A stretch of 64,000 bases of DNA from Gammaproteobacteria bacterium (GTDB taxonomy: Bacteria > Pseudomonadota > Gammaproteobacteria > Eutrophobiales > Eutrophobiaceae). Of this stretch, positions 1,027 through 53,640 are shown piece after piece (positions within the stretch are counted from its first letter, which is position 1; each line of letters opens with the position of its first letter). The stretch spans positions 1,060,451 through 1,124,450 of the forward strand of contig OZ271833.1 of the NCBI GenBank assembly GCA_965601665.1. The letters run 5' to 3'. The translations under genes and the position numbers were made by a program. The notes beneath the pieces are model-generated. The model did not search any database, was not told where the DNA came from, and saw only the letters and a list, made by a program, of their open reading frames with translations.

Positions 1027-1751
1027 CCAACATCATAGTCAGCAAGCTCAACGACTAATGTACCTTTATCCAGCGCTTCACTCTGGGTCGTTTCAAGGCG
1101 TTCCAGCTTAACCAACCCTATGCCGCGTGCATACCAGCGCGTTTCCTCAACATTGATTAACGTCAGGCCAACATAATTGCCCGCATCTTTCATCATTGAG
1201 CCTGTCATCGTTATTTTTACACAGTTACTAAATACGCCGGCGGGCACGTTTACTGTTTCATCCAGTGACTCAACAGTAACATCCAGGGGTACTTTGGCAA
1301 CAATACGAAATTCCGTTTTCTGTGGTGGTCCGGTCTTTTTCAACAGCCGCGTTTTACTGTACGTCTCCCAGTTATCATTGAGTACTAAGGGTTGTTTCAT
1401 GACTATCCGCTGTTCCTGCTGAAAGGAACCACCTGGGATATCGCCACTGTCACTACCAACGTACTCTATTGAATCCGGTTTAACCGCGTAATAGAGCATG
1501 GTGCCATCCAGGGACTGCCTGGCATAAACCGACTCTGACTGTAATTTACTCGGACCGAGGTTATTGAGGATGTATTTCTGTGTTTCAAGCCCGTCCCTGG
1601 TCGTCAGGGCAACGTCATAGCGCCATTTGTAACCGGATTGCAATGGAAAGTAATCTGGGTCCGAACCCGAGCAGGAGGCAAGAACCAACAGCCCAACGAC
1701 AACAAGGCTGAATCTTGCAACAAACATATTCGTGAGATTAAGCACCTTCAT
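1023..1751 (-). CDS. lipoprotein of unknown function
   Basis: Signal peptide with lipobox (LLVLASC). The ATG at 1751 overlaps the upstream gene's stop as ATGA. I did not recognise a family. Confidence 0.6.
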   Translation of the reverse strand: MKVLNLTNMFVARFSLVVVGLLVLASCSGSDPDYFPLQSGYKWRYDVALTTRDGLETQKYILNNLGPSKLQSESVYARQSLDGTMLYYAVKPDSIEYVGSDSGDIPGGSFQQEQRIVMKQPLVLNDNWETYSKTRLLKKTGPPQKTEFRIVAKVPLDVTVESLDETVNVPAGVFSNCVKITMTGSMMKDAGNYVGLTLINVEETRWYARGIGLVKLERLETTQSEALDKGTLVVELADYDVG

Positions 1752-11485: not shown

Positions 11486-12406
11486 TTAGTTTATATTAAT
11501 CAACCGCTTAGGGGCGACACGCCCGTCACCTTTATGCTCTCCTATACCCAGAAAGGGGCCTTCCTGCTGATAGATCCGCACCAGCCCGGTAGCGGCTAAT
11601 CCATTGGCGTTGACCACCTGACCCTGGCAGAGATAATGCGCCACATCTTTTGTCAGCGTAATTCCAGGCAAATGAGGCAATGACAGATCCATCGGTAACA
11701 AGCAGGCATCCAGCTCGGCTTCACCGGCATCTGCCTTTTCCTGCAGCTGCTCGAGAGTCAGCATTTGCTCCTCGTTAAAGGGTCCGCTTTGCAAACGCCG
11801 TAACATACTGGTGTGAGCCCCACAGCCTATGGCTGCACCAATGTCCTGCACAAGGGTGCGAATATAGGTACCTTTTGAACAATGCACCTTCAGGGTAAAC
11901 TCTGTTGTGGATAATGCCAGCAAGTCCAGCTTGTATATCTCGATCTGCCTTGGCTGACGTTTAACCTCAATTCCCTGGTACGCCAGTTTATAAAGACGCT
12001 GGCCGTTATGCTTCAGCGCTGAAAACATCGGTGGCACCTGTTCAATACAGCCACGAAAACGATCCAGTATCGCGACCAGTTGCTGCTCTGTCAGTTGTGT
12101 TACCGGCTTTTCTTCCAGTATCTCGCCGCTGGCATCGCCGGTAGTGGTGGTCACACCGAGGCTACCTGTGGCGATATAGGTTTTGTCGGCATCCAGTAGA
12201 AAACCAGACACCTTGGTAGCCTCACCAAGGCAAACAGGTAATAAGCCGGTAGCAGGCACATCCAGGCTGCCGGTATGACCAGCCTTGGCTGCATTGAACA
12301 GTCGTTTGACTCTTTGTAATGCCTGGTTGGAACTGATACCAGATGGCTTATCAAGGAGCACGATACCGTCAACCGGGCGAACGCCTTGTTTTCGTTGTCT
12401 TGCCAT
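11486..12406 (-). CDS. truB: tRNA pseudouridine-55 synthase
   Basis: GILLLDKPSGISSN ... GHTGSLD motif. Position after rbfA. Confidence 0.95.
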   Translation of the reverse strand: MARQRKQGVRPVDGIVLLDKPSGISSNQALQRVKRLFNAAKAGHTGSLDVPATGLLPVCLGEATKVSGFLLDADKTYIATGSLGVTTTTGDASGEILEEKPVTQLTEQQLVAILDRFRGCIEQVPPMFSALKHNGQRLYKLAYQGIEVKRQPRQIEIYKLDLLALSTTEFTLKVHCSKGTYIRTLVQDIGAAIGCGAHTSMLRRLQSGPFNEEQMLTLEQLQEKADAGEAELDACLLPMDLSLPHLPGITLTKDVAHYLCQGQVVNANGLAATGLVRIYQQEGPFLGIGEHKGDGRVAPKRLININ

Positions 12407-12408
12407 GG

Positions 12409-12789
12409 CTAGTCTGATTTTGTGTCGTCCTCAACGTCAGTATGAAATGAACTGGAACTGATGATTTCATCCAGGCGCTGCGCCTGGGCAATAGTTTTGT
12501 CGTACATGAACGTCAACGCCGGCACGCCTTTTGAGGTCATTACACGTGACAGGTCATGGCGCAATGAGGCAGACTCATCATTTAGCGCCTGAACCAGTTC
12601 ATCGGGGTTATGCTTGTCGCCAAATGCAGTGAAGTAGATTTTTGCGTTTTTCAGATCAGGACTGACATCCACGTCCGTTACGGTAATCATGCCGTAAGCG
12701 CGTAATGGAAATGCCTTTTGAATGAGTGTTGCCAGTTCCTGTTTGATGAAACCAGCCACTCGCTGGTTGCGGCCAAATTCTCTTGGCAT
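12409..12789 (-). CDS. rbfA: ribosome-binding factor A
   Basis: RbfA-like sequence. The ATG at 12789 (MPREFGRNQRV) lies 1 nt after the infB stop codon. Confidence 0.9.
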   Translation of the reverse strand: MPREFGRNQRVAGFIKQELATLIQKAFPLRAYGMITVTDVDVSPDLKNAKIYFTAFGDKHNPDELVQALNDESASLRHDLSRVMTSKGVPALTFMYDKTIAQAQRLDEIISSSSFHTDVEDDTKSD

Positions 12790-12790
12790 G

Positions 12791-15340
12791 TCACTCGATA
12801 GTGCGTTCCACGCTGATACGTTCAAACACTTCTATCTGATCTCCAACGCGAACATCGTTGTAGTTTTTTACACCGATACCGCAATCCATACCAGATTTAA
12901 CCTCGGCAACATCATCCTTGAAACGCCTTAGCGATTCGAGTTCACCTTCATAGATGACAACGTTGTCTCGCAGCACACGAATCGGGTTGCTGCGCTTGAT
13001 ATAACCCGTTGTGACCATACAGCCGGCAATATCACCAAATTTGGGCGAGCGAAATATGTCCCTGACTTCCGCTACACCAATAATCTGTTCGCGAATTTCC
13101 GGTGACAACAAACCACTGATCGCAGCTTTCACGTCATCAATAACATCATAGATGATGCTGTAATAGCGGAGGTCAATGCCTTCTGCGTCGACCAGTTTCC
13201 TGGCACTGGCGTCAGCACGTACGTTAAAACCAATGACGATACCCGATGAAGCCATGGCCAGGTTTATATCGGATTCAGTAATGCCGCCAACACCGCTACT
13301 GATAATACTGACTTTCACTTCTTCAGAACTCAGTCGTGTCAGCGCATCCACAAGTGCCTCGGAAGAACCCTGAACATCGGCCTTGATCAGCAGGTTTAAG
13401 GCAACAGTTTCACCTTCCTGCATTTGCGACATAACGTTTTCGAGCTTTGCCGCCTGCTGCTGGGCCATCCTGGTTTCGCGATATTTACCCTGTCTGAATA
13501 ATGCAATTTCGCGGGCTTTCTTTTCATCAGGCACAACGATCATTTCATCACCGGCATTAGGTGTACCCGATAAACCCAGTACTTCCACCGGTGTTGAAGG
13601 CCCAGCCTCGGTGACTTCATTGCCAGTGTCATCAACCATCGCGCGTACACGGCCAAACTCATGACCACTGAGCATGACATCGCCTTTCTTCAACTGGCCG
13701 CCTTGCACAAGAATACTGGCAACCGGTCCCCTGCCCTTATCAAGCCTGGATTCAACAACGGTACCTGTCGCGGCGCCTTCTGCAGAGGCAGTCAGTTCCA
13801 GGATTTCAGTGGTTAGCAGGATGCCTTCCAGTAAGTCATCAACACCCTGACCCGTTTTGGCAGAAACATTAACGAACATGGTATCGCCACCCCAGTCCTC
13901 AGGTATGACCTCGTGCTTGGATAACTCCTGTTTGACGCGATCAGGGTCGGCATCTTCTTTATCTATTTTATTGACTGCAATGATAATCGGAACGTCACCA
14001 GCCCTGGCATGTTTGATGGCTTCCTCTGTTTGTGGCATGACACCATCATCTGCTGCTACAACAATGATCACGATATCAGTGACCTTGGCGCCCCTGGCGC
14101 GCATCGCGGTAAAGGCCTCGTGGCCAGGCGTGTCCAGGAATGTAATATCGCCGTTGTCAGTCTTCACACGGTAAGCACCAATGTGCTGGGTAATACCACC
14201 GGCCTCACCCGAGGCCACCTTGGCACGGCGAATGTAATCCAGCAGGGACGTTTTACCATGATCGACGTGGCCCATAATTGTCACGACAGGCGCACGTGTA
14301 ACCTGCTCACCTTCCTGTTGCGCCGCCTGGATCATTTCTTCCTCAAGGGCATTATCTTTCATGAGCCTGGCCTTGTGGCCTATTTCCTCTACGACAATTG
14401 CCGCCGTTTCCTGATCTATAGTCTGGTTAATCGTCACCATCGTACCCAGTCCCATTAATACCTTGACCACTTCAGAGCCCTTGATGGACATTTTTTGTGC
14501 CAGGTCAGAAACGGTGATGCTCTCAGGAATATCAACTTCCTTTACCACCGGGGCGGTCGGCTTTTCAAAGCCGTGCTGCTTGTTGGTTGCGGGCTGTACG
14601 ACCGGTTTGGCCTTGACCTTTTTGCGACGTCGCCCACTTCCTTTGGTGGCCACGTGCAATTCTTCACGTCCGTGACGACGCTCATCCTTGAAAGCACGCT
14701 CCTTATCTTTATCAGCACTGGATTTCTTGTCTACCAGTTGCTCCAATGCGGCCTTGTCTGCAGCAGGTGGTTGTGCTGACTCTGCAATGGGTGCTGACTC
14801 CTCTTTCGCAGTCCCTGTTGACGCTTGTTCGACTTTTGCAGCCACCTCCACGGCAGCCTTTTCCTGTGAATCAAGTTCGGCTTGTTTCTCTGCTTCCGCG
14901 ACCTTGCGGGCTTCCTCTTCAGCCTGTTGTTTAGCTGCTTCTTCGGCCTCACGACTTGCCTGTTCTGCCTGCAGTCGTTTGGCTTCTTCTTCCTGTTCCT
15001 GCTTCAGTGTTTCTGCAACATCGCTGCGTTTGGCATAAGTACGGCGCTTGCGAAATTCGATACTGACGGTCTTGGAACGTGGTTTTGTCCTTCCCTGTCC
15101 GGAAACCGGTACTTTTAACTCGCTGACCGTCTTCCTGCGAAGTGTGATCTTGCGAGGTTCGGCATCGGCGTCTTTGCCGTGTTTTTTACGTAAAAACGCG
15201 AGCAACTTGGTCTTTTCATCATCCGTGATCGTGTCCTGTTCATTCTTTTCTGACAAGCCAGCCTCGACAAGCTGTTCACGAAGTCTGTCTACTGGTACAC
15301 CCACATCGGCGGCAAATTCACTGACTGTAATATCAGGCAT
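12791..15340 (-). CDS. infB: translation initiation factor IF-2
   Basis: 849 aa with a charged N-terminal region, GTPase motifs ([21 protein letters not shown]) and the conserved C-terminus. Confidence 0.97.
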
Positions 15341-15355
15341 TGATCCTATCCTTAA

Positions 15356-16888
15356 TTAACTCGTTTGCTCTGCTTCTTCAGCAATTTCTGCTTCTTCAAA
15401 CCAGGGTTTACGCGCCGTCATGATCAACGCACCCGCCCTCTCTGAATCCATACCCGCAATATCCAGTAGCTCGTCTACTGACTGCTCGGCCAGGTCTTCC
15501 ATGGTAATGACGCCCTTACCGGCCAGTTCAAATGCCAGTTCATCATCCATACCTTCCATGCCCAGCAGATCTTCGGCGGGTTTGTTGTCACCCAGTTGTT
15601 CTTCCTTGGCAATAGCGCGGGTAAGCAATAAATCTCTCGCCCTGTCACGTAATGCGGTAACCAGTTCTTCATCAAACTCTTCGATCGCCAGCATTTCCTT
15701 TTCCGGCACATACGCCACTTCTTCAATACTGGAGAAACCTTCCTGCGCCAGAATAAGTGCAATTTCATCATCGACATCAAGCTGTTCCTTGAACATGGCT
15801 TGCAATGTTTCTGATTCAGCTTCACTTTTTTCTTCTGCCTGTTGCACCGACATGACGTTCAGTTCCCAACCTGTCAGTTCACTAGCCAGTTTGACGTTCT
15901 GGCCACCTCGTCCTATGGCCTGCGACAGGTTTTCCTCGGCAACGGCTACGTCCATAACATGTTCATCTTCATCAACCATGATCGACGCCACTTCTGCAGG
16001 CGCCATGGCGTTGATAACAAACTGCGCAGGGTTTTCATCCCAGAGAATGATATCGACACGTTCTCCACCCAGCTCGTTTGAGACCGCCTGAACCCTGGAG
16101 CCGCGCATACCGACACAGGCGCCAATCGGGTCGATCCTGGGGTCATTGGCGTTGACAGCAATCTTGGCGCGCTGGCCCGGGTCACGGGCGCCATTAATGA
16201 TATCGATCATGCCTTCGTTAATTTCAGGCACCTCAATCTTGAACAGTTCAATCAGTAGTTCCGGCGCAGTACGACTAAGAAACAGCTGTGGTCCACGCGT
16301 GACTTCTTCTCTGACCTCTTTCAAAAAGGCTCGGATGCGATCGCCAGGCCGCATCGCTTCTCTGGGGATCAGCTGTTCGCGAGGTATAAATGCCTCGGCG
16401 TTATTACCGAGGTCAATGATGACGCCGCTTCTGTCAGTACGCTTTACGACACCGCTCACCATTTCACCAACACGGTCGGCATATGCATCAACGACCTGGG
16501 CACGTTCTGCTTCCCTGACTTTCTGCACTATTACCTGTTTGGCTGCCTGTGCAGCAATACGACCAAATTCGACTGACGGCATCGGTTCTTCAATAAAGCC
16601 GCCGATTTCAATATCAGCATCCTTTTCCCTGGCATCAGTCAGTTTTATTTGTCGCGTGGGTACAAATTCGAGCAATTCCGGATCTTCTTCATCGACCACT
16701 TCCCATTGGCGAAAGGTTTCATAATCGCCGGTCTCGCGATCAATCTTTACTCGCGCCTCAATATCTTCACGATTACGTTTCTTGGTCGCACTGGCCAAAG
16801 CGGCTTCGATGGCCTCAAAGATAATGTCTTTTGCAACGCCTTTTTCGTTACATACAACATCAACAACCATTAAAATTTCTTTATTCAT
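15356..16888 (-). CDS. nusA: transcription termination/antitermination factor NusA
   Basis: 510 aa with S1/KH domains and an acidic C-terminal repeat region. Position between rimP and infB. Confidence 0.97.
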
Positions 16889-16907
16889 TTGTTATACCGT
16901 CACCATT

Positions 16908-17363
16908 TCAAAAATCCGGAACCAGTCTCGCCTGCTCTATCAGGTTAAAAGGCACGACCAGTTCTTCTTCCTCACAATCAAGTATCACATTGTCATTTTC
17001 GACTGCCAGCAACACACCCACTATGCGACGTCGGTCATTCAATTTAGTGTGCAATTTCAGCTTTACTGTTGCACCTAAAAATCGCTCAAAGTGTCCCAAT
17101 GTAAAAAGCGGCCTGTCTAATCCAGGCGACGAGACTTCCAGTTCATACTTGCCCTCAATCGGGTCTTCTACATCAAGCAATCCGGTTAACTGCTGACTAA
17201 CGAGGACACAGTCGTCAATCGTTATGCCCTCTTCCTTGTCAATGTAGACCCGCAATAACGAACCACCGCCATTACGTCCCATTTCCAGGCCGAGCAACTC
17301 GTAACCCAGGCCTGAAACTTCCGGCTCAAACAAGTCGAATATTGCCTGGTTTTGTCTATGCAT
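16908..17363 (-). CDS. rimP: ribosome maturation factor RimP
   Basis: LEVSSPGLDRPL motif. Start at 17363 (MHRQNQ) is preferred because the upstream extension of the ORF covers a hairpin plus T-run. Confidence 0.88.
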   Translation of the reverse strand: MHRQNQAIFDLFEPEVSGLGYELLGLEMGRNGGGSLLRVYIDKEEGITIDDCVLVSQQLTGLLDVEDPIEGKYELEVSSPGLDRPLFTLGHFERFLGATVKLKLHTKLNDRRRIVGVLLAVENDNVILDCEEEELVVPFNLIEQARLVPDF

Positions 17364-17380
17364 ATGCCGAAAATAAAAAA

Positions 17381-17395
17381 TGGGCGCGAAGCCCA
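17381..17395 (-). terminator. hairpin plus T-run immediately upstream of rimP (possible attenuator)
   Basis: Minus strand reads TGGGC-TTCGC-GCCCA followed by TTTTTTATTTT. Confidence 0.45.
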
Positions 17396-17494
17396 TTTTG
17401 TTAACACCACAAAATTTGCAGTAATTATAGACAGTATTGCTAAAACTGCCAATTTACCCGAACCGCGTTAACACTACTTCCCTGAATACAACAA

Positions 17495-17512
17495 AGCCCC
17501 TGAAGAGGGGCT
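17495..17512 (-). terminator. hairpin downstream of tRNA-fMet (possible partial terminator)
   Basis: Minus strand reads AGCCCCT-CTTC-AGGGGCT followed by TTTGTTGTATT. Confidence 0.5.
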
Positions 17513-17593
17513 TTTCAGAAGACCAGACCAATATTGGTTGCGTCTCCATGTACAGGTCTCATGACAATACTATGACAGTCAACTGTACAAATT

Positions 17594-17670
17594 TGGTAGC
17601 GGGGGCAGGATTTGAACCTGCGACCTTCGGGTTATGAGCCCGACGAGCTGCCAGACTGCTCCACCCCGCA
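17594..17670 (-). tRNA. initiator tRNA-fMet (anticodon CAU)
   Basis: Minus strand reads TGCGGGGTGGAGCAGTCTGGCAGCTCGTCGGGCTCATAACCCGAAGGTCGCAGGTTCAAATCCTGCCCCCGCTACCA. It has three consecutive G:C pairs in the anticodon stem, an unpaired 1:72 position and an encoded CCA. It is near-identical in blocks to E. coli tRNA-fMet and sits at the metY position ahead of rimP-nusA-infB. Confidence 0.93.
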
Positions 17671-17963
17671 ACTGTTCTCTATCTTCACTAACTGGTCGCC
17701 ATGCGACCTTCGGAGCTTTTCGATACAGGGAACCCGACTCTTGTCAGACTGCTCCACCCCGCAACTGTTCTCTATCTTCACTAACTGGTCGCCATGCGAC
17801 CTTCGGAGCTTTTCGATACAGGGAACCCGACTCTTGTCAGAATGCTCCACTCCGCAACTGTTCTCTATCTTCACTAACTGGTCGCCATGCGACCTTCGGA
17901 GCTTTTCGATACAGGGAACCCGACTCTTGTCAGACTGCTCCACCCCGCAACTGTTCTCTATCT
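17652..17963. repeat. tandem 93-bp repeat, 3.35 copies, derived from tRNA-fMet
   Basis: Units at 17652-17744 and 17745-17837 are identical. The unit at 17838-17930 has 2 substitutions. A partial unit at 17931-17963 has 33 nt identical to the unit start. The first 18 nt of unit 1 are the 5' end of the real tRNA. Confidence 0.95.
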
Positions 17964-17988
17964 ATAATCGCGGGACCGTGCGAGTCAA
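17961..17988 (-). promoter_or_regulatory. candidate sigma-70 promoter for the tRNA-fMet leader
   Basis: Minus strand reads TTGACT, a 16-nt spacer, then TATAGA, about 14 nt upstream of the first GCGGGG block. Confidence 0.4.
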
Positions 17989-18084
17989 AAAAGATTAACC
18001 AGGTTAGCCTGCGATTGCGCAGCGCATAGTACAGGTCAAACCGGGCTTTTTCAAGATGAATCAGTGAAGTAGAAACAGTGCTAT

Positions 18085-19164
18085 TCAGATCACGGCAGCA
18101 AGGCGTACAGGCACTCTTTTGGTGCCCCAGTGCCCGGGACTATCGTGAAATTTGCCGTGACAGTGTTGTCCACATTTCAGACACTGACCGCCTGCGCCCA
18201 GGCGCCATTCTTTCAAGGTATACCAGTCTCTGATGATTAATGGATCGCCACAGGCATGACAATAGGTCGTGTCGCCGTCGAGGTCATGTACGTTACCGGT
18301 GTATACATAATAAAGACCGTTGTTAATCGCAATCTGACGAGCCTGTTGCAGCGTAGAGAGTGGCGTATGCTCCGTGTTTCGCATTTTCCAGTCGGGATGA
18401 AATGCTGAAAAATGCAGCGGGATCTCTGGCCCCAGCTCCTTGACTATCCACTGGGTCATCTGCTCGATTTCGTCGTTACTGTCATTTTCTCCCGGAATCA
18501 GCAACGTCGTTATCTCTAGCCAGGTATCAGTCTCGTGCCTGATGTAACAAAGGGTATCCAGTACCGGCGCTAAATGGCTGCCTGTAAGCCGGTAATAAAA
18601 GTCTTCACTGAATGATTTCAGGTCAATATTGACAGCATCGATAACATTGTAGAACTCGGCCCGCGGCTTCGGACACACGTATCCCGCTGATACGGCGACG
18701 GTATTTATGCCGCGTTGCCGGCACGCCTGTGCCACATCAATGGCATATTCGTGGAATATAACGGGGTCATTATAGGTAAAGGCAATACTGTCACAGCCAA
18801 GATTTTCTGCCGTTTTCGCCAACAGTTCAGGGCTGGCACTATCCGCCAACGTATCCATCTCCCGCGACTTACTAATGTCCCAATTCTGACAAAACTTACA
18901 GGCGAGATTGCATCCCGCAGTGCCAAACGACAAAACGGCAGAGCCCGGGTAAAAATGATTCAGTGGTTTTTTTTCAATCGGGTCTATACAAAAACCGCTC
19001 GAGCGTCCGTATGTCGTTAGATATATCTGATCATCATCACATTGCCTGACAAAACACAGACCACGTTGGCCATTATGTAGCTTGCAGGCACGGGGACACA
19101 GATCGCACTGAATTCGCCCGTCATCAAGCCGATGCCAGAATTTAGTTGGAGCAAGCGTTTGCAT
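18085..19164 (-). CDS. AmmeMemoRadiSam system radical SAM enzyme
   Basis: CNLACKFC (CX3CX2C) cluster, extra N- and C-terminal Cys clusters, and PFL-activase-like length. Divergent from the Memo-AMMECR1 gene. The ATG at 19164 is preferred over the TTG at 19188. Confidence 0.82.
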   Translation of the reverse strand: MQTLAPTKFWHRLDDGRIQCDLCPRACKLHNGQRGLCFVRQCDDDQIYLTTYGRSSGFCIDPIEKKPLNHFYPGSAVLSFGTAGCNLACKFCQNWDISKSREMDTLADSASPELLAKTAENLGCDSIAFTYNDPVIFHEYAIDVAQACRQRGINTVAVSAGYVCPKPRAEFYNVIDAVNIDLKSFSEDFYYRLTGSHLAPVLDTLCYIRHETDTWLEITTLLIPGENDSNDEIEQMTQWIVKELGPEIPLHFSAFHPDWKMRNTEHTPLSTLQQARQIAINNGLYYVYTGNVHDLDGDTTYCHACGDPLIIRDWYTLKEWRLGAGGQCLKCGQHCHGKFHDSPGHWGTKRVPVRLAAVI

Positions 19165-19240
19165 CGTCAGGTTACCTTTCTGGTTCAAGTCAGGCTTTAG
19201 TTACTATACTTAATCATGGTTACTAATAGTCTAGTTCAAT

Positions 19241-20617
19241 ATGCATCCTATAACTGATAAACACGCAAAAATGTCGATCCGACCGGCTGCCGTTGCCGGC
19301 ATGTTTTACCCGGTAGATGCGGCCAGGCTGGATGCCGAACTTGATAAGTTACTGACTACCGAGCCGGGATTGTCCGACCCTGTAAAGGCACTGGTTGTGC
19401 CGCATGCCGGGTACATCTATTCGGGACCTGTCGCTGCTAGCGCCTATGCAAACCTGTTCCGCCAGCGAGAACAAATAACACGGGTTGTGCTACTCGGCCC
19501 GGCACACCGTGTCTTCGTAGAGGGGGCAGCTATTCCCACCAATACTCATTTCGCTTCACCACTGGGTAACATTGCCCTCGATGTCGAGGCATTAGCAAGT
19601 ATTGCCGATTTGCCATTTGTTCAATACATGGATTCGGCGCATCGTGATGAGCATAGTCTCGAGGTACATCTACCCTTTCTACAAAAAACACTTGATCACT
19701 TTGTGCTGATACCCATTGTTGTTGGTAATGCTGATGCCGAACAGGTTGCATCCATATTGGAACAGCTCTGGGGCGAACAGGAAACATTGATTGTCGTTAG
19801 TTCTGATCTGAGCCATTACCACGATTACCAGCACGCAAAAAAACTTGATGCAGAAACAACACGTTTAATTGAAGGCTTTGCCTACAAAGAGATAAAACCG
19901 GAACGGGCATGTGGCTGCATGCCATTACGTGGACTGCTGAAACTTGCCAATGCAAAAAATATGATATTGAAAACGCTGGACTTGCGTAACTCAGGCGATA
20001 CAGCTGGCCCACGTGACAAGGTTGTCGGTTACGGCGCCTATGCACTCTGTGAACAACGCATATTATCAACTACCGAAAAAAGCACAGTGTTTGAAATGAT
20101 GCGACAAAGCATATTACAGGGACTTGAAGGTGACGGACCTTTACAGCCTGATATGGATAATTACCAGGATACACTATCGCGTAATTATGCTGTTTTTGTG
20201 AGCTTGAAGAAAAACGGAAAATTGCGCGGTTGCATCGGGAATACTCTTGCTGACAGGCCTTTGCTTGAAGCCGTCTGCTACTATGCGCATGCCGCGGCAT
20301 TCAATGATCCGCGATTTGCACCGCTAGGTGAAGAGGAGTGGCCTGAGACAAAACTTGGTTTGTCCATCCTGACGCCGGCAACGCCCATGCAGTTCAATGA
20401 TGAACAAGACCTAATCAGCCAGCTTCAACCCGGTCTGGATGGCCTAATCATCGAGAAGGATGGGAAAAAAGCCACTTTTTTGCCAGTGGTATGGGATTCA
20501 TTATCAGAGCCAGCACGCTTCATGACTGAATTGAAACAAAAGGCTGGCATGACGCCCAATGAATGTCCGGCACAGGCCTGGCGCTACACAGCTGAATATT
20601 ACGAATATATCACCTAG
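19241..20617 (+). CDS. fused Memo-like / AMMECR1 domain protein
   Basis: N-terminal half reads RPAAVAGMFYP ... VVPHAGYIYSG (Memo family). C-terminal half reads GKLRGCIGN ... DPRF (AMMECR1 family). Confidence 0.85.
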   Translation: MHPITDKHAKMSIRPAAVAGMFYPVDAARLDAELDKLLTTEPGLSDPVKALVVPHAGYIYSGPVAASAYANLFRQREQITRVVLLGPAHRVFVEGAAIPTNTHFASPLGNIALDVEALASIADLPFVQYMDSAHRDEHSLEVHLPFLQKTLDHFVLIPIVVGNADAEQVASILEQLWGEQETLIVVSSDLSHYHDYQHAKKLDAETTRLIEGFAYKEIKPERACGCMPLRGLLKLANAKNMILKTLDLRNSGDTAGPRDKVVGYGAYALCEQRILSTTEKSTVFEMMRQSILQGLEGDGPLQPDMDNYQDTLSRNYAVFVSLKKNGKLRGCIGNTLADRPLLEAVCYYAHAAAFNDPRFAPLGEEEWPETKLGLSILTPATPMQFNDEQDLISQLQPGLDGLIIEKDGKKATFLPVVWDSLSEPARFMTELKQKAGMTPNECPAQAWRYTAEYYEYIT

Positions 20618-50111: not shown

Positions 50112-53565
<3,454 letters not shown>

Positions 53566-53640
53566 ACACATGCTATATAATACGATCCACAACTACAACC
53601 AATAAAAAGTCGTGCAGATGCAACAAGGCGACACAGACAT

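Follow-up and report, generated by a model that had tools for sequence, protein, structure and literature searches.

Tandem tRNA-derived units at the initiator tRNA locus

We analyzed a 64-kb stretch of contig OZ271833.1 from a gammaproteobacterium (hereafter the window), in which a tandem array of 93-bp units lies on the minus strand ahead of rimP and directly upstream of a functional, metY-like gene for the initiator tRNA (tRNA-fMet). Tandem Repeats Finder placed the array at 17652-17963, with a period of 93, 3.4 copies, 98% matches and zero indels. The 18-mer GCGGGGTGGAGCAGTCTG, with which the tRNA begins, occurred four times, at 17652, 17745, 17838 (2 mismatches) and 17931, against a chance expectation of 0.05, and a unit-specific 44-nt core occurred three times with zero mismatches (chance expectation, 0.00). 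These matches confirm what the first-pass annotation of this DNA had proposed, namely a tandem 93-bp array together with copies of the 5′ start of the tRNA; the coordinates it assigned to the units cover the same array but are shifted in phase relative to the tRNA-like 5′ end, from which the units are counted here. In the window, the start of a unit and the start of the tRNA gene share 33 bp, made up of 14 bp of spacer end and 19 nt of tRNA. No further copy of the unit was found in the window by scans with the 18-mer, the 44-nt core or R1, a covariance model built from 11 units, which matched only the three units and the tRNA. The features of the locus are collected in Table 1.

Table 1. Positions in the window of the array, the initiator tRNA gene and the surrounding features.
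Feature	Position	Strand	Basis and remarks
Unit 1, degenerate initiator tRNA	17857..17949	-	93 bp; unit extraction; R1, 86.6 bits
Unit 2, degenerate initiator tRNA	17764..17856	-	93 bp; differs from units 1 and 3 by G6A and G15T; R1, 82.3 bits
Unit 3, degenerate initiator tRNA	17671..17763	-	93 bp; identical to unit 1; abuts the functional tRNA; R1, 86.6 bits
14-nt spacer-end copy, AGATAGAGAACAGT	17950..17963	-	Precedes unit 1; left repeat boundary; array end by Tandem Repeats Finder, 17963
Functional initiator tRNA-fMet (metY-like), anticodon CAT	17594..17670	-	Sole ARAGORN tRNA call here; Rfam tRNA, 64.4 bits
Conserved sigma-70-type promoter candidate for metY, TTGAAA-N17-TACTAT, then GC-rich discriminator (GCGC)	18026..18054	-	Consensus scan and nine-lineage alignment
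TTGACT-N16-TATAGA motif (TTGACT 17988-17983, TATAGA 17966-17961)	17961..17988	-	Read from the sequence; weak -10
Intrinsic-terminator-like hairpin after the tRNA, AAAGCCCC...GGGGCTTT and T-rich tail	17493..17514	-	Sequence scan; kept in relatives
Second promoter-like site, TTGGCA-17-TATAAT, ahead of the rimP leader	17424..17452	-	Consensus scan, 11/12 matches; kept in relatives
rimP	16908..17363	-	Pfam
nusA	15356-16888	-	Pfam
infB	12791-15340	-	Pfam
rbfA	12409-12825	-	Pfam
truB	11486-12406	-	Pfam
Radical S-adenosylmethionine (SAM) gene	18085-19188	-	Pfam; directly upstream of the tRNA-fMet promoter
Memo/AMMECR1 fusion gene	19241-20617	+	Pfam; divergent from the radical-SAM gene; AmmeMemoRadiSam-type pair

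An alignment with the tRNA showed that the window unit retains tRNA positions 1-19 exactly, as well as the 5′ strand of the anticodon stem, UCGGG. A 16-nt insert takes the place of the anticodon-loop AUAAC, and after it the unit retains CCGAAGGUCG(C), of which the block found family-wide is CCGAAGGTCG. The T-arm region has become a perfect 6-bp hairpin, GGTCGC-ATG-GCGACC, the unit end GCGACCA aligns with the tRNA 3′ end GCUACCA, and a 23-nt A/G-rich spacer closes the unit. The unit length equals that of one 77-nt tRNA plus a spacer of 15-30 nt. The blocks shared between unit and tRNA are the 5′ acceptor strand, the 5′ strands of the D arm and of the anticodon stem, and the variable-loop AAGGUC; the window unit has no anticodon, no T loop, no 3′ acceptor strand (no CCCCGC strand) and no CCA. 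The hairpin, the order of the blocks and the missing 3′ acceptor strand and CCA had all been described in the first-pass annotation and can be read directly in the sequence. ARAGORN called no tRNA in the units, the Rfam tRNA model (RF00005) did not match them even at E<=10, and searches with other Rfam families likewise gave no match (positions 16800-18800 at E<=10; whole window at the gathering score). Judged by their sequence, the units are derivatives of tRNA-fMet that cannot be charged, in agreement with the earlier description of a tRNA-fMet-derived module that cannot be aminoacylated and whose copies are more similar to each other than to the tRNA.

The functional tRNA carries a non-standard 1:72 pair (U1:U72) and three G-C pairs in the anticodon stem, which together identify it as an initiator tRNA; the E. 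coli initiator tRNA carries C1:A72. We compared its upstream region with those of relatives, whose contigs are given L numbers below. The promoter elements TTGAAA-N17-TA(C/G)TAT and the GC-rich discriminator were conserved in the nine lineages aligned, and TGCGGGG, with which the tRNA or a unit starts, begins 13 nt past the -10 hexamer in six of the nine. In the unit-free lineages L098, L101 and L102 it is the tRNA that starts at this distance, while in L093, L100 and L078 a unit stands at exactly that position. Since the start of the unit corresponds to the tRNA start of unit-free lineages, the units occupy the initially transcribed region, which supports their earlier placement between a promoter and the tRNA.

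The promoter-like motif that had been named at first was a different one, TTGACT-N16-TATAGA. This motif is present, but only in this genome, L065 and L072 having nothing like it at the corresponding position, and the conserved promoter lies 62 nt further upstream. The consensus scan passed over the motif because its second hexamer lacks the final T; it may still be a second promoter, of this genome alone. A promoter inside each unit was rejected, as neither inspection by eye nor the consensus scan gave a consistent -35/-10 pair at a fixed distance. A boxA-like antitermination signal in the spacer was also rejected, since the resemblance seen by eye in some lineages was vague and did not extend to the window.

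Open reading frames of 103-131 aa run through the array (17612-17998 and 17634-18029 on the plus strand, 17632-17943 on the minus strand) and could be annotated as repeat proteins. These frames stay open only because 93 is divisible by 3, one period being equal to 31 codons. Coding potential was rejected, since units elsewhere are 92, 97, 99, 100, 103, 104, 105 and 107 bp long and Pfam returned only sub-threshold noise.

The unit family in other lineages

Relatives were gathered by a RimP protein search covering graded distances, and their contigs were fetched; in addition, we scanned 241 million metagenome records for an initiator 5′ block followed, after 30-50 nt, by CCGAAGGTCG. A species-representative genome collection scanned with RimP contained no close relative, the best match being 55% identical, and exact look-ups of the window NusA returned no record. 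At least ten uncultured gammaproteobacterial lineages carried the unit family at their tRNA-fMet locus. Closest to the window were L065, L066, L068 and L069 (RimP 97% identical to that of the window), with one 92-bp unit each, followed by L072 (RimP 86%), with one 97-bp unit, and L093 (RimP 74%), with one 103-bp unit. L100 has two units, 105 and 100 bp long, that have diverged from each other, and L099, whose contig starts inside a unit, has at least one. The 467-kb contig L078 (RimP 50%, NusA 75%) carries three full 104-bp units and one that is internally deleted, and one unit each was found in L083/L089, L092/L097 and L094 (RimP 44-49%, NusA 64-65%). The NusA cluster of L083 and L092 is named Pseudohongiellaceae.

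Each genuine match of the pattern scan was located immediately upstream of a tRNA-fMet gene and, if the contig reached far enough, of rimP. The other twelve loci returned by the scan are not units: they comprise six tRNA genes with small internal duplications, two intron-bearing tRNA-like sequences, three chance coding matches, and L086. With R1, the scores of units (65-93 bits) did not overlap those of true tRNA-fMet genes (26-46 bits); the model found no unit at the Pseudomonas, Idiomarina, Legionella, Cycloclasticus and Psittacicella loci, and a scan of viral contigs for the unit gave 0 matches. The family is thus specific to this locus and not dispersed, since scans of the window, of other genera and of viral contigs returned no units elsewhere. 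The element spans two synteny contexts, because in Pseudohongiellaceae the upstream neighbour is tRNA-Leu(GAG) and not the radical-SAM gene: the arrangement of radical-SAM and Memo-AMMECR1 genes is common to the clade of the window (L065, L072, L098, L100-L102), and the Pseudohongiellaceae loci have secG-tRNA-Leu(GAG) instead. By comparison of sequences, the element is an old, locus-specific family and not a recent one-off, being common to lineages whose NusA proteins are only 64-75% identical. The comparison with related genomes that the first-pass annotation had called for revealed a unit conserved at the same locus, with a copy number that varies from 0 to 4.

The number of units among relatives was 0, 1, 2, 3 or 3-4. 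Two species hold both unit-bearing and unit-free alleles with linked single-nucleotide polymorphisms (L065 versus L067/L071, and L072 versus L073/L074), a linkage that argues for a real copy-number polymorphism, beside possible assembly collapse. Unit and tRNA share a 26-bp start in L072 and one of 33 bp in the window. Such direct repeats suit unequal crossing-over or slippage, and the shared 5′ stretch would thereby explain the 5′ identity of unit and tRNA, the near-uniform arrays and the differences between lineages. The amplification or concerted evolution that was proposed at first thus agrees with changes in copy number over short evolutionary distances, relatives having 0, 1, 2 or 3-4 units; the element as such is an old one. 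We also looked for a decayed unit between the promoter and the array in the window, L065 and L072. Local alignments scored no better than shuffles, and the candidate was not supported: no trace of a unit was recognisable in the 46-62 nt tested in the window and L065, and L072 alone retains ~16 nt from the start (CTCTGATACGGGGTGAA) in the orthologous position.

What the units share across these distances is not the tRNA fold. The T loop is missing from the units of most lineages, the D stem is paired in no more than 58-60% of cells across 12 units, indicating that it is not maintained, and the D-loop positions G18/G19 are mutated in the window, L065, L072 and L092, with changes that strengthen an alternative long hairpin. 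Pairing like that of the anticodon stem is possible in 98% of cells across the units. The tRNA cloverleaf is clearly not what the units conserve. On the other hand, the 10-nt block CCGAAGGTCG was invariant in 12/12 aligned units, and the insert measured 14-17 nt everywhere, with a mean pairwise identity of 0.58; the corresponding values were 0.44 (spacer), 0.35 (tRNA trailer) and ~0.28 (shuffles). The stem of the GC hairpin was kept while its loop ranged from 2 to 15 nt. A consensus fold with four helices (columns 3-6/55-58, 7-13/35-41 and 17-21/30-34, and the GC hairpin) was 96% paired, and several substitutions spare it: G19A and C28U in L065 are compensatory, G-U pairs change to A-U in the third helix, and G6A of window unit 2 keeps its pair.

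The persistence of the insert, of CCGAAGGUCG and of the hairpin stem across distant lineages, while loops and spacers drift, suggests that the unit is probably kept by selection. Gene conversion cannot preserve the insert or the 3′ strand of the hairpin, because neither has a counterpart in the tRNA. Survival of the unit over NusA distances of 64-75% would also be unlikely without selection, since the unit is prone to deletion and its loss is irreversible. We consider retention of the unit by selection as an RNA to be likely but unproven.

Origin, retention and competing explanations

As an observation, the array is confirmed in its anatomy, its family, its position relative to the conserved promoter, its variation in copy number and the tRNA features that it has lost. 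The interpretation in which we place slightly better than even confidence is that it consists of three degenerate initiator-tRNA units of a conserved, locus-specific family, which would descend from an old metY duplicate and would have been retained, probably, as a processed leader RNA. In more general terms, the element is probably a conserved, copy-number-variable leader repeat derived from the initiator tRNA in uncultured Gammaproteobacteria, a conserved leader RNA and not a one-off slippage product.

It would have originated when the metY tRNA-fMet gene was duplicated in tandem in an ancestor and the duplicate lost the anticodon loop (with the 16-nt insert in its stead), the T loop and the 3′ acceptor strand. 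A full tandem duplicate of the tRNA fits better than other origins because of the position of the first unit and of the alignment of GCGACCA with GCTACCA; origin by a partial duplication of -30..+57 was rejected, as the first unit in L078, L093 and L100 stands at the same distance from the promoter as the tRNA of lineages that have no unit. Both the anatomy and the copy-number differences suggest that unequal recombination or replication slippage between direct repeats would then add or remove whole units, giving rise to 0-4 copies, and exchange between the repeats would keep the 5′ part of each unit identical to the selected tRNA. Given the conservation of the metY promoter, the units would be transcribed from it as the 5′ leader of the tRNA, and a cut by RNase P at tRNA +1 would release the unit RNA, with RNase E plausibly acting in the A-rich spacers. 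The released RNA is predicted to fold not into a cloverleaf but into a long imperfect hairpin, in which GCUCC and GUCGG pair with the 5′ tRNA half, and a GC hairpin of 4-8 bp, with the 16-nt insert left single-stranded. It may function as a processed leader RNA in the manner of E. coli RtT, its dosage set by copy number.

A more ambitious version of this proposal, to which we give less than even credence, is that the units form a family of leader RNAs that derives from the initiator tRNA, is under selection and has not been described before. These RNAs would be transcribed from the metY promoter in a fixed ratio to tRNA-fMet and set free by tRNA processing. They could affect maturation or read-through in cis, or act in trans via the conserved single-stranded 16-nt insert, and so tune the capacity for translation initiation, with the copy number of 0-4 as a fast-evolving control of dosage. 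The supply of initiator tRNA limits translation initiation, and initiator tRNA genes respond to selection by amplification.

Several observations weigh against a selected leader RNA, and some of them also speak for the view that the unit is a neutral relic, a non-functional pseudogene of a duplicated tRNA-fMet that persists through recombining junctions and gene conversion from the adjacent tRNA. Covariation in the consensus fold was not significant: among the 12 sequences there was one double change, which 115-232 of 500 shuffles equalled. This test is weak on power, because it rests on 12 sequences whose 5′ strands are fixed by their identity with the tRNA. The fold energy of a single unit was not unusual either (z = -1.36). 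The sister lineages L098, L101, L102 and L105 and the strains L067 and L073 are unit-free, and their lack of the unit, like that of Pseudomonas, Idiomarina, Legionella and Cycloclasticus, indicates that it is dispensable; this patchy distribution with 0-copy strains speaks for a relic. Promoter-proximal copies decay, as shown by unit 1 of L100, which begins TGCGTAGTGGATCAG, by the internally deleted first unit of L078 and by the remnant CTCTGATACGGGGTGAA in L072. The Pseudohongiellaceae lineage L105/L106 has no upstream unit, but carries decaying partial copies of tRNA-fMet downstream, indicating that the tRNA-fMet/rimP locus is prone to partial duplication and also yields non-functional relics. 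In addition, copy numbers from short reads are unreliable, as many contigs break inside the tRNA or a unit. Recombination alone, moreover, accounts for the perfect identity with the tRNA over at least the first 19 nt. We nonetheless regard a neutral relic as less likely, although it is the main rival explanation, since the insert and the 3′ strand of the hairpin are conserved at NusA identities of 64-75%, at which spacers and trailers are near the level of shuffles (0.35-0.44 compared to ~0.28), and since CCGAAGGTCG is invariant even though a non-homologous insert parts it from the convertible 5′ part. Flanking direct repeats of 26-33 bp would furthermore favour deletion, which is irreversible, making neutral survival unlikely.

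Two other explanations also assign the unit a role. One, which we consider improbable, is that of a folding trap or attenuator, in which the 5′ strand of the unit competes for the 3′ acceptor strand of the tRNA and lowers or conditions the yield of mature tRNA-fMet. A thermodynamic model did predict that the probability of the native acceptor stem, 0.99 without a unit, falls to 0.00-0.04 with the window units upstream, the swapped pairing being dominant; across ten lineages, however, the probability of the swapped pairing ranged from 0.00 to 0.96, with energy differences of only 0.6-4.7 kcal/mol, and an acceptor-strand swap as a conserved mechanism was rejected for this inconsistency. Any duplication of the 5′ strand would yield the same effect, and both co-transcriptional folding and local pairing of the unit 5′ strand should favour the native fold. 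The other, quite improbable in our view, is a tRNA-shaped decoy that mimics the initiator tRNA and titrates RNase P, RNase E or some tRNA-fMet-binding protein. The units do keep the 5′ blocks of the tRNA and AAGGUC, and the anticodon-stem-like pairing described above would be compatible with mimicry. The failure of ARAGORN and of the Rfam tRNA model at E<=10 to recognise them argues against it, as do a D stem broken in ~40% of cells, the mutated G18/G19 in the window, L065, L072 and L092, and the absence of a 3′ acceptor strand, CCA and, in most lineages, a T loop. RNase P, the formyltransferase, initiation factor 2 (IF2) and methionyl-tRNA synthetase (MetRS) recognise tRNA identity elements that the units lack. 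The tRNA mimic or decoy suggested in the first-pass annotation is thus weak.

That the three copies could derive from the mis-assembly of a single- or zero-copy locus was considered, as the short-read assemblies of relatives often break or collapse here and two of the three window units are identical. This is very improbable, since multi-copy arrays occur independently in L078 (3-4 units on a 467-kb contig) and in L100 (two diverged units, and so no product of collapse), and since the middle window unit has two private substitutions; the presence of the window RimP and NusA on a 2.85-Mb contig in the protein collection suggests, furthermore, that the assembly is near-complete. Lastly, the direct repeats, and nothing else, would be compatible with a dispersed repeat of the repetitive extragenic palindromic (REP) or miniature inverted-repeat transposable element (MITE) type, or the integration scar of a mobile element, that landed beside the tRNA. 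This explanation can practically be discounted. There was no other copy in the window and none in viral contigs, every genuine unit among the metagenome records lay directly upstream of tRNA-fMet, and in these scans the unit, for which a check for a REP or MITE had been proposed at first, was confined to the tRNA-fMet/rimP locus. As for a scar, no integrase or element separates the copies, which are contiguous with spacers of 22-31 nt, the neighbours are the radical-SAM gene, Memo/AMMECR1 and rimP, and the repeats contain the tRNA 5′ end, not the 3′ part that is typical of integration sites.

Comparison with known systems and neighbouring features

The closest parallel to the array is the tyrT-tyrV locus of E. 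coli K-12, where we found a 178-bp x 3.1 array that overlaps the last 19 nt of tyrV and within which rttR and the tpr open reading frame are annotated. PMC3318445, citing Bosl and Kersten 1991, reports that one of the tyrT repeat units of E. coli encodes the processed small RNA rttR. Both systems consist of tandem repeats within a tRNA transcription unit, each repeat holding a terminal fragment of the adjacent tRNA gene, and in both, spurious or tiny open reading frames run through the repeats. They differ in that the E. coli array lies downstream and carries the tRNA 3′ end, whereas that of the window is placed ahead of the tRNA, after the promoter, and contains the tRNA 5′ end together with internal blocks; they also differ in the tRNA concerned (tRNA Tyr versus initiator), in unit length (178 bp versus 92-107 bp) and in taxa. 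In the E. coli tyrT repeats, as proposed for the present units, copy number can change by unequal recombination. The two share no similarity of sequence or structure: the Rfam RtT model did not match the window, either in 16800-18800 at E<=10 or over its whole length at the gathering score.

Tandem duplication of an initiator tRNA gene, as in metZ-metW-metV of E. coli, is a known route to a changed dosage; PMC9897764 cites Nilsson et al. 2006 in this connection. The length of the present unit is consistent with descent from such a tandem tRNA pair; unlike metW or metV, the extra copies here are not tRNA genes and carry a derived 16-nt insert that is common to distant lineages. Catalogued partial tRNA fragments arise from the integration of mobile elements or the acquisition of CRISPR spacers, with the element separating them from the full gene (PMC9897764). 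The present units resemble these as non-canonical partial tRNAs beside a complete gene of the same isotype, but they are arranged head-to-tail, lie 15-30 nt from the gene and within its transcription unit, have no mobile element nearby and form a conserved family. The rimP leader (RF01770) is likewise a non-coding element of the same operon region in Gammaproteobacteria; its place is after the tRNA, and it has no relation to the units.

The first-pass annotation knew of no described leader of this type, and our Rfam and literature searches found no described family; the literature searches, directed at a described initiator-tRNA leader or pseudogene array, returned nothing relevant. If the units do give rise to an RNA, this would be the second tRNA operon, after E. 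coli tyrT/RtT, that makes an extra RNA from tRNA-fragment repeats, and the first case of such repeats in a 5′ leader and from an initiator tRNA. The array also shows cleanly, in a natural setting, how a pseudogene and its essential parent gene evolve in concert; if the units are neutral, they would be an ordinary, though well-documented, tRNA-pseudogene array. In practical terms, the repeats cause breaks at the tRNA-fMet/rimP locus in assemblies from short reads, and in the window they create the false 103-131 aa reading frames.

Downstream, Pfam places rimP, nusA and infB after the tRNA, as had been described at first, but the tRNA does not simply head their operon: a terminator-like hairpin of its own follows it, and rimP is preceded by a separate promoter-like site and then by the rimP leader hairpin. 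Because the terminator-like hairpin and this near-consensus site intervene, the tRNA unit and rimP-nusA-infB would be linked mainly by read-through. The metY gene of E. coli is likewise linked to its downstream operon mainly by read-through. A sub-threshold match to the rimP leader RF01770 was seen at 17375-17549 on the minus strand (27.2 bits, compared to a cut-off of 47), split by a 73-nt insertion that holds the TTGGCA-17-TATAAT site.

The sequence of tRNA-fMet is identical in all lineages of the clade of the window; that of L083, L092, L094 and L105 differs by one base (C50U), and that of L101 by C50U and a compensating G64A. In L105/L106, the region at ~880-1060, downstream of tRNA-Met at 760-836, contains one copy made up of GCTCGTCGGGCTCA, ~30 diverged nt with CATAA, and TTTGAAATCCTGCCCCCGCTACCAATTTC, followed by a second, more decayed one. 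In three loci (L087 8337-8413, L088 3461-3537 and L096 11015-11092), tRNA-fMet upstream of rimP has a 4-5-nt duplication at the junction of D stem and anticodon stem, for example GCTCGTCTCGTCGGG; these duplications could be assembly errors or real variants, and ARAGORN still calls tRNA-Met. L091 1222-1432 holds a metZWV-like tandem pair of tRNA-fMet genes of E. coli-type sequence with a 24-nt duplicated junction (ACGGTGACGCGGGGTGGAGCAGCT repeated), probably an assembly artefact. Initiator-like tRNAs with a 13-18-nt insertion after the anticodon (CCCATAA, the insert, then ACCCGAAGG) were found in AT-rich contigs at L080 ~1227-1289 (minus strand) and L081 9896-9963 (plus strand); they look like intron-bearing tRNA genes and are not called by ARAGORN. 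Elsewhere in the window, a thiamine pyrophosphate (TPP) riboswitch (RF00059) was detected at 53480-53568 on the minus strand, with 66 bits.

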